Both the position numbers and the translations under genes were made by a program. The notes beneath the pieces were generated by a model. That model searched no databases, was not told the DNA's origin, and was given only the letters and a program-made list of their open reading frames with translations. From an uncultured Clostridia bacterium (lineage in GTDB: Bacteria > Bacillota > JAAYKD01 > CAYOCI01): a stretch of DNA of 64,000 nt. The first letter of the stretch is position 1; every line of letters starts with the position of its first letter. Location: positions 15,267 through 79,266 of the forward strand of contig CAYOCI010000005.1 in assembly GCA_964402415.1 (NCBI GenBank). The letters run 5' to 3'. Shown one piece after another: positions 35,806-39,200 of this stretch.

Positions 35806-36198
35806 TCATGATGTTAAGTCTTTGGGGTGGGGGGGATTCCTAATGCGCAGTTCTTCTCCTCGTGAGGTTAGTGAGTTGTCTTCCCGGTTGTGCATCGCAT
35901 TGTGGCACCTACTGCATAAGCTGACCAGGCACTCCTCCGCATAAGCCAGCTCTGGGTATTGATCGAGCGGCCAAGCATGGTGCACGTGAGATGCTGATGA
36001 GCGCTTACCATATCGCTTGCACTCGCGGCAGAGGTACTCGTCTTTTCTCAGAACACGCGCCCGGACACGTTCCCACTTCGCGCTCTTATAGAAGCTCACG
36101 GTGTTCTTATCACCACATCCACCGGCATCGCAGCTGCAAAACCATAGCGCCACTCCCAGCACATCGACAGCGTATCTCTTAAGTCTGCGCCTTGTCAT
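35806..36198 (-). CDS. HNH endonuclease (packaging-associated)
   Basis: CRECKRYGKRSSASHVHHAWP...LCSRCHNAMH. RBS GAGGTGA before the ATG at 36198. Confidence 0.7.
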   Translation of the reverse strand: MTRRRLKRYAVDVLGVALWFCSCDAGGCGDKNTVSFYKSAKWERVRARVLRKDEYLCRECKRYGKRSSASHVHHAWPLDQYPELAYAEECLVSLCSRCHNAMHNREDNSLTSRGEELRIRNPPHPKDLTS

Positions 36199-36325
36199 TT
36201 GATCACCTCGCTGTGTCACGCCAGATCCTACCCCTGCCGTCATGACATATCCACCACTCCAGGAGGAGACTGCGAGCTAACATCGAATTTGCTTAGTTGG
36301 TGGCGAGTCACAGGAGGTTGTTGAC

Positions 36326-36520
36326 GTGGCAAAGTCAAAGGAACCTCTTCATTCTGGGAACAAAGCTCCAGTGTCTGGCCAGTATGGCATCCGTGGCCCC
36401 CGTGGAGGTAAGACTGACTATGGTGAAGTGACCGCAACAAAAGGCAAGCGTCTACCTCCCACTCCAGAGCCGGATCTCTCTTTCGCGCTTAACGATCCGA
36501 CCAATCACGGTAAAAAGTAG
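36326..36520 (+). CDS. YjzC-like small protein
   Basis: GNKAPVSGQYGIRGPRGGKTDYGEVTATKGKRLPPTPEP matches the YjzC-family pattern. AGGAGG 8 nt before the GTG. Hairpin terminator at 36548..36590. Confidence 0.5.
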   Translation: MAKSKEPLHSGNKAPVSGQYGIRGPRGGKTDYGEVTATKGKRLPPTPEPDLSFALNDPTNHGKK

Positions 36521-37048
36521 AACCCGTAAAATGTATTACTCGTCACCAAGAGCAGGCCCCACTGGGGTCTGCTCCTCATTTGCATGGCTCAAACTGCCTG
36601 TCCCTCGCTCGTTTCTTACCGGCTCTGCAGTTGATTATCCAGCCCATGACGCAGAACCACGACAGTTCCCTATGGTGCCTTACCCCTAACAACTCCTCAC
36701 ATTAGGGCCTCATGAATGCTCATCAACAGTCAGTTCGCATCCATTATGCACCCAAAATAAAAACGCGACCTCACTGGCCGCGCGTCAGTATCCAAATATG
36801 ATTAATCGATTACTATTCTCCACCTGCGCTTATCTCTTCCGTACCGATGCTAACTCCCTGTTCGACGTGCTGTGAGAGACAGCCCTGACCACGCGTGAAG
36901 ACAACGTGACATCCTCAGTCACTGTCCCAACGCGACAGATTTCAATATTGCTCGTTGGAGGCGCTGACAAGAACGCAGCCTTCCCTATCGCAATCATATA
37001 TTGAGCCTTCTTCCCCGGGTTCCTCTTTGCCATAGCAACCACCCCTTC

Positions 37049-37903
37049 TTAGCGGAAATACTCTGGAATATCATCAAATAGAAACTGAGAGAAGTTCACG
37101 AAACCCTTTCTGATGACTTCTTGCTCAGCTTGATCTCCGATTTTCAGGTCTTCAGTCGTGTCGAACGTTACAATCGCAGCTACTTGGTCTTTCCCTCGGA
37201 AGAGTGGTACACAAGCCACAAACCGTAGGTCGCCTGTCTTGTTAACTTGAAGCTTCGTCAAATTATAATCAGCGTAGGACTGCTGAAGGTTGTCGTCGTA
37301 AATCATCTTCTTGCTGCAATAGCACTTACCAACGAGACCCTCGGGAACCGGCGAAACACGGAACCGAAGTTTGTTGGTCATACCGGCATCTGCGAGAGCT
37401 GGGTGATTCCTAATTACGAATACTGTCTTGTTTGGAAAGGACCACTTAGTCTTCGTGAAGATCCTGACGTTCACACTTTTCATGGATGGGGCGTCAAGCT
37501 GGGCGGCAAGAGCTGATAGCATTGTCCCCTTAAGGAACTTGATCAATACATCTCGTCGGCTTTCTGCTTTAGACCGGCAGAACTCAGATACCGAGAGTTT
37601 ACACCCAACTAGTAATGCCGATGCGAAGAGGCTCCATAATAACATCTTGTCCTTAACAGCGTCAACATCTACATCAGACGCAAGGAACCCTGACGATTTG
37701 AGGTTATCCACAAAGAACGGGGAGCTCGAGGCGTATGCCAGCAAATTCGGTATGAGGATAGTTAAAAGCACCTGCACCACGATCCAAGTCTTTCGTCCCA
37801 CAGTAATCAGCGCTCCATAGCTATAGTATTGTATGTTGGGTCTTCTACCAACAGTAACCAGTTTCCTTCTTCGGACCAGCGAAATTTTGGAGCACTGAGA
37901 CAA
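37049..37903 (-). CDS. membrane-anchored protein with C-terminal GAF-like domain, in an AT-rich moron
   Basis: TM helix TWIVVQVLLTILIPNLLAYA. C-terminal ..GLVGKCYCSKKMIY...GDLRFVACVPLFRGKDQVAAIVTFDT... Local GC clearly lower than the flanks. Confidence 0.5.
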   Translation of the reverse strand: MSQCSKISLVRRRKLVTVGRRPNIQYYSYGALITVGRKTWIVVQVLLTILIPNLLAYASSSPFFVDNLKSSGFLASDVDVDAVKDKMLLWSLFASALLVGCKLSVSEFCRSKAESRRDVLIKFLKGTMLSALAAQLDAPSMKSVNVRIFTKTKWSFPNKTVFVIRNHPALADAGMTNKLRFRVSPVPEGLVGKCYCSKKMIYDDNLQQSYADYNLTKLQVNKTGDLRFVACVPLFRGKDQVAAIVTFDTTEDLKIGDQAEQEVIRKGFVNFSQFLFDDIPEYFR

Positions 37904-38087
37904 TAAGCGACAGAACTTGGTTCATTTCTACACAATTGTCTTCACTGGATTGGCTAATAGCAGATACATTCCACCGATCTCCCCTACTATCGTATCACGC
38001 CTCGCGCCAAGATGCGTATCAAAAATGCCTCACGGCCGTCTCAAAATAGTCTCACTCAAACGCATTGCACGGTCTGCCCCAGTAGGC

Positions 38088-38573
38088 TCAGGATTTTGCT
38101 TCTGTTACGCCAGGTGTAGGCTTACTCCAAGGTCTGCCATCGACATACACTTCCAGTCTTAGCATGAACGCCAGATTGTAGATAGCTCGGCCCTGGATAC
38201 GGTAGTATGTCGCCCGACTCACGTGTAGCTTCTCCAGCATCTCTAGCTCAGACGCCAGGTCGTCGTCCAGATAAGTCCTTTGAATGATTGCACTCTCCTT
38301 GTTTCTAAGCCGCTGGACAGCTCTCTCTACTCGCTCCGTAAGGTCATTCATCATCTCGTCGTGATCTGCGTTAGCGACCGCGACGTCCTCAGCTGGTCTC
38401 CCCACCACATTGGTGGTACCATGATATCGCGGACTATATGCGGGGGTGACGTTCATCTCTCTGCGGAATGAGCCATATATGCGGTAGAACCGAGCTGTGT
38501 GTAGCGCCTTCTCCACCCGCTCCTTTGTGGCTGCGCGGTCAATCTCCGGGAGAAGGTGTAACTGGTATGACAT
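38088..38573 (-). CDS. ArpU-family (sigma-like) phage late transcriptional regulator
   Basis: 161 aa, C-terminal HTH ..LHVSRATYYRIQGRAIYNLAFML.. Confidence 0.6.
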   Translation of the reverse strand: MSYQLHLLPEIDRAATKERVEKALHTARFYRIYGSFRREMNVTPAYSPRYHGTTNVVGRPAEDVAVANADHDEMMNDLTERVERAVQRLRNKESAIIQRTYLDDDLASELEMLEKLHVSRATYYRIQGRAIYNLAFMLRLEVYVDGRPWSKPTPGVTEAKS

Positions 38574-38659
38574 GACTTCCCCTCCTCACCCATGGTATAA
38601 TGTCAATGATCGGTCCCTGTCTGCCTTCGGGTGGGCGGGGTTTCTTTATGCGCTTTTCC

Positions 38660-39157
38660 CTAGACGGCTGCTAGATAATCCAGCACCGCCCTCCTGCTCG
38701 GTCCGATCCCGCGAGCCTTCTCTACGATCTCCGCGATCGGTATCGACTTACGCCCGCCATGGGCGCCTCTCCACGCTTCATCCAGTAGCTCGAACGGTAG
38801 TATGTAGTGTGCGTCTATTGCTGTGAAATGGACCAGGATGAACGCGGTCCCGCCGATCTCCTGCCATCGCTTCAGGAACTCATACTGATGGTCACTGACC
38901 AGTGCCAGATCGAACCGTGTGCTCACACCGGTCTCCTTCGCGTCGAAAGCAATGGCTTTGCTCTGATAGATCCCGACATAGTCAACTGTGCTCGGCTCAG
39001 AGAAGAAGGCGCTGACTATCTTGGTGCCCTGCCTGACTACCTTCACCGGCGTGGGCACCTTCTGGATCACTGCGATCCGCTTCGCGGCGTACTGTCGGTT
39101 CGACCAGTTGATCAGCTCCTCTAGCCCTTGCCCACGATTGGCGTAGCTACTAGCCAT
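38660..39157 (-). CDS. recU: RecU-like Holliday junction resolvase
   Basis: ..VDYVGIYQSKAIAFDAKETG...HQYEFL...GGTAFILVHF RecU core motifs. RBS GGTGGA. Confidence 0.6.
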   Translation of the reverse strand: MASSYANRGQGLEELINWSNRQYAAKRIAVIQKVPTPVKVVRQGTKIVSAFFSEPSTVDYVGIYQSKAIAFDAKETGVSTRFDLALVSDHQYEFLKRWQEIGGTAFILVHFTAIDAHYILPFELLDEAWRGAHGGRKSIPIAEIVEKARGIGPSRRAVLDYLAAV

Positions 39158-39200
39158 CAGTGTCCACCAATGGCCATGCATAGAGCGTCAGGGATTGATA

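Follow-up and report, generated by a model that had tools for sequence, protein, structure and literature searches.

Several effectors of abortive infection in bacteria have a sensor domain fused to N-terminal transmembrane (TM) helices, among them PycTM of Pycsar (pyrimidine cyclase system for antiphage resistance), 2TM-SAVED/Cap14 of CBASS (cyclic oligonucleotide-based antiphage signalling system) and Cam1 of type III CRISPR (clustered regularly interspaced short palindromic repeats). A TM segment, an FtsL-like helix and a GAF domain make up toxFtsL_D9 of Gelidibacter mesophilus (WP_027127282.1; NetFlax node D9), a 281-aa toxin (PMC10440598) that is neutralised by the adjacent PanA (WP_027127283.1; Ernits et al. 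2023, PMC10440598) and whose toxicity was seen as blocked division, filamentation, FtsZ delocalisation and delayed lysis, with no depolarisation (PMC10440598). Here, we describe a cassette found in a 64,000-nucleotide stretch of contig CAYOCI010000005.1 from an uncultured Clostridia bacterium; this whole stretch is called the window, and the coordinates refer to it. The cassette comprises two minus-strand genes, one for a membrane-anchored GAF protein and one for a small basic partner, and it is a mobile unit inserted in a cargo hotspot of a Bacillota prophage, where it is a candidate toxin-antitoxin (TA)-like module. Its parts are the following:

37049-37801, minus strand: GAF gene, 250 aa; the product has two TM helices at its N-terminus, then a long stalk helix, and the GAF domain at its C-terminus
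36830-37033, minus strand: small partner gene, 67-aa basic protein (from the sequence and homologous small open reading frames, ORFs)
36763-36783, minus strand: intrinsic terminator closing the cassette, upstream of the HNH-terminase late genes (from the terminator scan and the folding energy)

An earlier sequence-only reading of this DNA had reported a 284-aa minus-strand protein. That open frame exists (37049-37903, minus strand, up to TTG 37903), but the protein is likely shorter. The product called by NCBI, P0001, has 250 aa and starts at GTG 37801, and in the family alignment the homologues begin 3-6 basic residues ahead of the first TM helix (TM1). Because of the NCBI call and the start seen in the alignment, the gene was taken as 37049-37801, with GTG 37801 as its most likely start codon. 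A HMMER search of 1.84 billion cluster representatives gave 196 proteins at E ≤ 1e-3 and 138 at E ≤ 1e-10; the family thus found amounts to about 196 clusters at 50% identity, and its members, nearly all of 240-295 aa, match end to end. The Pfam model GAF_2 scored 24.2-24.6 bits, under the gathering cut-off of 28.6, and sub-threshold Pfam matches among 86 family members were to GAF_2 in 31 and to GAF in 18. Since GAF_2 was found only below threshold, and in 31 of the 86 members, the family is placed as a divergent branch of the GAF superfamily. No model of PADLOC, PHROGs or NCBIfam matched the protein. The scan of a genome collection found the family in Bacillota only, and the IMG/VR scan found none; word-indexed searches of proteins gave few relatives, none of them a Gelidibacter protein, and tblastn searches gave no match for P0001 in INPHARED phages and PLSDB plasmids, nor for protein P0160 in plasmids.

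The AlphaFold2 model of the 250-aa protein, built on 86 family members, reached a predicted local distance difference test (pLDDT) score of 96.5. It contains a helix at residues 3-26, a short helix at 30-36, a continuous helix at 46-102 and an alpha/beta domain at 111-250. When this model was compared with the PDB by Foldseek, 69 matches at E ≤ 1e-3 were obtained, and nearly all of the 50 listed were GAF domains; the top matches were the cGMP/cAMP-binding GAF domains of PDE6, PDE2A, CyaB2 and Lcd1 (E = 1.6e-6 to 1e-4, probability 1.0). The model thus confirmed the C-terminal GAF-like fold that had been read from the sequence, predicted as a six-stranded antiparallel sheet flanked by helices. 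The pocket of this domain is a putative small-molecule binding site, given that the best structural matches bind cGMP or cAMP. The conserved Cys in the motif GLVGxCY was considered as a catalytic residue of fRMsr-like type, and this was rejected, as GLVGxCY is the signature of GAF_2 in general and distant members have another residue in place of the Cys.

The membrane part differed from the single N-terminal TM helix first proposed. Two hydrophobic helices were found, at approximately residues 6-24 and 53-70; the family-averaged hydropathy showed two peaks, at residues 10-22 and 53-66, and two TM segments were scored in 65 of the 86 family members. The family net charge changed from +1.6 at the N-terminus to -0.4 in the loop, and to +2.4 behind the second helix. 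This pattern, read with the positive-inside rule, places both termini, and hence the GAF domain, in the cytoplasm, and the predicted part outside the membrane is only a loop of about 25 residues.

The second gene of the cassette had been overlooked in the sequence-only reading, as had the canonical terminator behind it. Its ATG at 37033 lies 15 nt past the GAF stop codon and is preceded by GAAGGGGTGG. The sole homologue from the word-indexed search, P0002 (36% identical), is encoded in a gut-metagenome phage, and its gene is followed by a 47-aa ORF that overlaps the P0002 stop codon; this ORF and the partner in the window share the pattern basic stretch-M..(I/M)G..AF(L)...P. We then compared the 24 loci of family members whose DNA was fetched, which belong to Bacillota, Flavobacteriia and one Glaciimonas metagenome-assembled genome (MAG); the loci included Clostridium sp. 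KNHs214, MAGs of Lachnospiraceae, Christensenellaceae, Blautia and other Bacillota, Polaribacter, other marine Flavobacteriia and several metagenome contigs. Directly downstream of the GAF gene, 23 of these 24 loci have a small basic ORF (47-93 aa), indicating that the unit is a conserved two-gene cassette and not a lone sensor. With the partner gene found, the reading therefore shifts to a two-component module. A motif of the form basic stretch-M...G..AF....P was present in most of the small ORFs, and overlap of the GAF stop codon with the start of the small ORF was common (L001, L010, L019, L021, L029), translational coupling of the two genes being frequent; at L020, the start codon of the small ORF was ambiguous. 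Such a compact bicistronic pair, conserved together in 23 of 24 loci, is laid out as in a generic type II TA module.

The small protein of the window matched no Pfam, PHROG, NCBIfam or PADLOC model, and 11 small proteins had no common Pfam match at E ≤ 10. In a single-sequence AlphaFold2 prediction of the 67-aa protein, a helix at residues 6-22 covered the conserved motif with low confidence (pLDDT 56), and the conserved core is probably helical. Resemblance of 'WGNIAF' to 'WGNSLAV' had raised an antitoxin of the AbrB/MazE type as a candidate, which was rejected, with no Pfam support and the wrong spacing. Behind the partner gene, the terminator (36783-36763, minus strand) has an 8-bp stem with 6 GC pairs followed by UUUUUAUUUU, with a folding energy of -13.9 kcal/mol. 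Transcription running through the cassette should hence end ahead of the late genes, implying that a late promoter lies farther down.

One locus stood apart: in L024 (8001-8471, Ruminococcaceae bacterium HV4-5-B5C), the match covered no more than residues 77-229 of a family member and lay within a differently framed 333-aa ORF that adjoins a 1,566-aa SpaA/collagen-binding surface protein. From its sequence, this appears to be a degenerated cassette.

On the minus strand, the gene order in the window is RecU, ArpU-family activator, 286-bp spacer, GAF gene, small ORF and terminator. Past the terminator come approximately 240 bp of non-coding DNA and a plus-strand 64-aa ORF, and then HNH, TerS (Terminase_4) and TerL. 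The position given earlier, between the packaging HNH gene and the late regulator, was borne out by profile matches to both borders:

38660-39181, minus strand: RecU (Pfam, E = 1.4e-46)
38088-38573, minus strand: ArpU-family late transcriptional activator, upstream border of the cargo slot (TIGR01637, E = 3.6e-18; phrog_248, E = 4.7e-31)
37802-38087, minus strand: 286-bp spacer from the ArpU stop to the GAF start (promoter and terminator scan; sequence read directly)
36326-36520, plus strand: YjzC-like/phrog_3202 gene, 64 aa, separate small cargo (ORF list; profile matches)
36550-36574, plus strand: 11-bp hairpin 3' of the YjzC-like gene, possible terminator with a weak U-tract (folding)
35806-36243, minus strand: HNH endonuclease of the packaging module, downstream border of the slot (Pfam HNH, E = 1.2e-7)

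The terminase region of the window shows 71% DNA identity to Geobacillus phage GBSV1 and Bacillus phage 1, and the ArpU-type regulator is 31% identical to gp11 of GBSV1 (E = 1e-20); RecU, ArpU and the related phages indicate Bacillota as the origin of the window. In GBSV1 (NC_008376; L031 6921-9600, same as L056 4553-7232), four genes stand between the activator and HNH, in the order gp12, gp13, a small ORF and a DUF3908 protein. Gp12, annotated merely as hypothetical in the record, matched RelA_SpoT (E = 1.2e-7) and gp13 matched SocA_Panacea (E = 3.7e-16), so that by their profile matches the two are a toxSAS-PanA TA pair. The same slot was then examined in 80 related phages from IMG/VR (L038-L117; TerL 72-82% identical), of which 33 had an ArpU activator that could be located with an iteratively built profile. 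In these 33, the distance from ArpU to HNH varied from 139 to 3,924 bp. The GC content of the slot was usually under the locus mean, and the cargo, which also included small integrase-like proteins, differed from phage to phage and was mutually unrelated. The identified cargo was as follows:

slots of L057, L059, L106 and L107: Ltp exclusion lipoprotein (E = 3e-48)
slot of L043: HicB-like protein (sub-threshold match)
slot of L066: DUF4145
slot of L104: DUF559
slot of L040: DUF4429 and SHOCT
slots of L086 and L098: several unannotated membrane proteins

From these contents, the site collects exclusion and TA-type genes. The GAF protein, its small partner and the YjzC-like protein were found in none of the 80 relatives, and this absence, together with the variable slot, confirms the reading of the region as a moron, i.e., horizontally acquired cargo: the cassette is absent from close relatives, lies at a variable site and deviates in composition (48% vs. 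56% GC).

The dip in GC content is real but moderate. In 300-bp windows, GC fell to 0.45-0.48 across 36.9-38.1 kb, in line with the AT-rich region reported previously, but the flanks had 53-57% and not about 60%. Taken as 36763-37903, the cassette has 48.0% GC. The mean of the window is 54.5% (z = -1.6), with 5.6% of segments of this size equally low; in the prophage part at 17.6-47 kb, the mean is 56% (z = -2.2) and the share of such segments is 1.9%. The GC content at third codon positions (GC3) was 0.54 in the GAF gene, 0.44 in the small ORF and 0.46 in the YjzC-like gene, against 0.75 in TerL, 0.71 in RecU and 0.67 in TerS. The deviating codon usage that the sequence-only reading predicted was therefore found with respect to the terminase and RecU genes, but some other prophage ORFs also have GC3 near 0.5.

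Horizontal mobility of the cassette was observed well beyond this prophage. It was AT-richer than its surroundings at 9 of the 10 other loci with GC computed (for example, 27% vs. 51%, 26% vs. 41%, 35% vs. 52% and 49% vs. 62%) and at 6 of 7 further metagenome loci, with L124 equal. In the gut phage, the cassette lies between a sigma-like late regulator and TerS, a position as in the window, and the terminase and portal type of that phage differ from those of the window prophage; the two phages are unrelated. Another copy is on a conjugative element with TrbC-like pilin and RepA_N, others adjoin IS21 or DDE transposases, and one is in a phage-like context with FRG and PBECR4 domains. In integrative elements of marine Flavobacteriia, the cassette directly follows BREX (bacteriophage exclusion)-like operons with BrxC/PglY, a PglX-type methyltransferase and PglZ, and in a Polaribacter integrative element it follows a methyltransferase cluster; at one locus it is beside ResIII/methyltransferase/UvrD-PDDEXK genes, and at another beside HATPase_c_3/helicase/methyltransferase genes. 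Copies between housekeeping genes were also found (GluRS/serpin, PFL, RelA/histidine kinase). TA and abortive-infection modules typically have such a distribution: scattered, in single copy, AT-rich, and linked to mobile elements and defence islands.

In the Flavobacteriia, the GAF cassette is separated from the BREX-like or methyltransferase genes by an unannotated ORF with no Pfam match. This ORF encodes 234 aa in the BREX-like islands (L015 7290-7994 and L035 8285-8989) and 182 aa in Polaribacter (L033 8388-8936), and it might belong to either of the neighbouring systems.

Because the cassette sits in a slot used by TA and exclusion genes, and elsewhere beside BREX and restriction systems, we propose by analogy, as the best explanation, that the GAF protein and the small peptide could form a TA-like abortive-infection or defence module, a proposal whose chances we regard as evenly divided. 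An abortive-infection or exclusion factor was one of the two roles offered in the sequence-only reading, and it fits both the defence-island neighbours and the architecture, which resembles that of a validated toxin. In this module, the membrane GAF protein would be an effector that damages a membrane-linked process, e.g., cell division or envelope integrity, its toxicity being modelled on the similarly built toxFtsL_D9, and the small protein would neutralise or regulate it. The trigger that releases the effector would be either an infection in which the partner is lost or displaced, or the binding of a ligand to the GAF domain; the infection would then be aborted, which would constitute the anti-phage activity.

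Several observations weigh against this proposal. The part of toxic partner is putative for the GAF protein, and the small protein has no recognisable antitoxin or DNA-binding domain, judged by Pfam on 11 small proteins. PADLOC-DB v2 gave no match at E ≤ 1 for either cassette protein, and no Panacea gene (PF13274) was found beside any of the 24 loci, among called or scanned genes. Since the likeness to toxFtsL_D9 is by architecture description, the cassette is not filed as a toxFtsL member. About one-third of the loci have housekeeping neighbours only, so that the defence association is anecdotal and qualitative, and in the window the GC contrast of the cassette is modest. Lastly, the spacer at 37802-38087 contained no consensus sigma-70 promoter and no terminator, either in the scan or on direct reading, which makes read-through from arpU possible; the cassette may then be expressed not in the lysogen but together with middle or late genes of the phage. 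The independent transcription signals that had been ascribed to this cargo are thus represented by the terminator at 36783-36763 but not by a consensus promoter.

A more specific version, which we put forward only tentatively and consider rather doubtful, is that of an undescribed anti-phage system in which the GAF domain would sense an infection-derived nucleotide or other small molecule and switch the membrane effector, with the peptide keeping the effector off in healthy cells. The effector would stop division or breach the envelope, and the system would have been spread by phages, conjugative elements and defence islands through a range of Bacillota, Bacteroidota and Proteobacteria.

The explanation that survives best beside the defence proposal is a plain addiction module, i.e., a TA pair that stabilises its mobile carriers and has no anti-phage activity. 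It agrees just as well with the architecture, with the pairing of the genes and with their scattered, AT-rich, single-copy distribution, and the comparable toxFtsL_D9:PanA pair has been validated for toxicity and neutralisation. Nevertheless, the cassette lies repeatedly at the end of BREX-like and methyltransferase defence clusters, and the phage slot otherwise holds exclusion and TA cargo, so that we judge plain addiction to be unlikely, albeit a serious contender. Many TA systems carried in this way protect against phages (PMC10440598).

Superinfection exclusion has a lower standing. Here, the GAF protein would act as a membrane gate that blocks DNA entry or an early step of infection without killing, and the small protein would be an accessory. 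A membrane-anchored protein in a prophage moron slot is what this explanation expects, and the Ltp exclusion lipoprotein occupies the same slot in four related phages. Against it, only the loop of about 25 residues is exposed, with the stalk and the GAF domain, the conserved bulk of the protein, on the cytoplasmic side; the basic partner, cytoplasmic and strictly conserved, would be left unexplained, and many copies of the cassette are outside prophages. We therefore consider exclusion quite improbable.

That the protein is a phage lysis-timing factor, either holin-like or a holin regulator with a small inhibitor as in the T4 holin T/antiholin pair, is less probable again, and we give it little credence. 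The gene is just downstream of the late activator with no terminator between them, toxFtsL_D9 causes delayed lysis, and T4-type holins in BFVD match weakly in fold (E ~4e-4, TM-score ~0.3). However, with two TM helices and a cytoplasmic domain the protein is unlike holin T, its gene is separated by about 17 kb from the presumed lysis genes, which lie at the opposite end of the late operon, and the cassette is closed by a terminator before the late genes. Moreover, most homologues are in non-phage chromosomal or defence contexts, and the absence of the cassette from all 80 related phages indicates that it is not needed for lysis. A receptor feeding the lysis-lysogeny decision, the other role offered in the sequence-only reading, can be set aside as very improbable: GAF domains commonly bind small molecules, the best structural matches being cGMP/cAMP-binding, and the gene adjoins a regulator gene, but no output domain or DNA-binding partner was found, the family is mostly outside phages, and the lysogeny module lies far from the cassette, which related phages lack.

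As a separate observation from the BFVD comparison, many uncharacterised phage proteins of 190-260 aa aligned over their full length with the TM and GAF model. The T4-type holins matched were those of Serratia phage PS2 and Proteus phages (E ~4e-4), and, judging from these model comparisons, the periplasmic domain of holin T may be GAF-like in fold.

The remaining features of the region are independent of the pair. The YjzC-like gene had been correctly recognised as a 64-aa plus-strand gene with an AGGAGG, which lies at 36313-36318, 7 nt upstream of its GTG. Its product scored 17 bits with Pfam YjzC (PF14168), below the gathering score of 25 (E = 0.0076), and matched phrog_3202 at E = 2e-8, and from the latter match it is a real phage-borne small protein with a distant YjzC likeness. 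Regarding the terminator attributed to this gene, a stable hairpin is present at 36550-36574 (centroid -21.6 kcal/mol alone; whole-stretch minimum free energy -24.3, z = -3.2), but it has a poor U-tract and was not among the terminators called in the scan. The protein was absent from the other cassette loci as well as from the 80 related phages, and tblastn against phages gave no match; it is an independent neighbouring cargo gene. It had been described as the only plus-strand gene of the structural half, but the ORF map contains further plus-strand candidates. The ORF from GTG 36326 had no exact copy in a 15-billion-protein collection in which other proteins of the contig are present, and it may have been passed over, or given a different start, when the source was annotated.

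The HNH protein of the window is 53% identical to that of GBSV1, which has 93 aa, in an alignment that begins at residue 49 (VSFYK...). Judging from this alignment, the listed 145-aa ORF probably starts about 48 codons too early, with the real start near 36099, which lengthens the non-coding stretch to approximately 36100-36325; divergent promoters for the late operon and the YjzC-like gene may be located there. Rfam gave no match in the region. In the gap between the minus-strand RecU and ArpU genes, a strong plus-strand terminator-like hairpin was observed at 38615-38640 (11 pairs, T-rich tail), which could stop antisense transcription or work in both directions.

On the whole, the observations of the sequence-only reading were partly confirmed and its interpretation partly supported. 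If the defence proposal holds, the cassette would be a compact, unannotated defence or TA module of about 200 clusters at 50% identity, with no model in PADLOC, PHROGs or NCBIfam and a sub-threshold GAF_2 match alone in Pfam. Bacterial immunity would then have GAF as a further sensor domain fused to a membrane effector, and a new peptide-type partner would be added to a toxin architecture hitherto known from one validated case. Should the proposal fail, the region would still be a clean example of moron insertion. A cargo hotspot is in addition defined in a widespread group of Bacillota siphophages, and its ArpU-to-HNH slot can be mined for defence and exclusion genes.

When set against known systems, the toxSAS-PanA pair of GBSV1 (gp12/gp13) shares with the cassette its slot, between an orthologous ArpU-like activator and HNH, and its two-gene make-up, whereas its proteins, a RelA_SpoT toxin and a Panacea antitoxin, are unrelated to those described here. 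Holin T of T4 (about 220 aa) is likewise anchored in the membrane, has an alpha/beta globular domain and is regulated by a small protein, and there is a weak fold match. It differs in its single TM helix (N-in/C-out), its periplasmic domain and its role in the lysis cassette; its antiholin RI is periplasmic and has a signal peptide, and the cassette has none of the distinguishing features of holin T and RI.

PycTM, Cap14 and Cam1 are closer in plan, as they also carry a cytoplasmic nucleotide-type sensor domain on two or more TM helices and are located in defence islands. In those proteins, the sensor is a cNMP-binding, SAVED or CARF domain, whereas here it is a GAF domain with putative ligand binding; in addition, the cassette has no cyclase or other signal-producing enzyme and has a conserved small protein partner instead.

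The comparison with toxFtsL_D9 was made with the description of its architecture, and no family member matched the FtsL or DivIC model at E ≤ 0.01. The partner also differs, being a basic peptide of 47-93 aa here and the Panacea-domain protein PanA there. Both are two-gene modules in which one protein has a TM segment, a long helix and a GAF domain (here, TM1 at 6-24, the second TM helix and stalk at 46-102 and GAF at 111-250), and both belong to the world of mobile, defence-linked TA systems. By this analogy, toxFtsL_D9 appears to be the closest known protein to the GAF protein of the window, and the cassette probably works like it.

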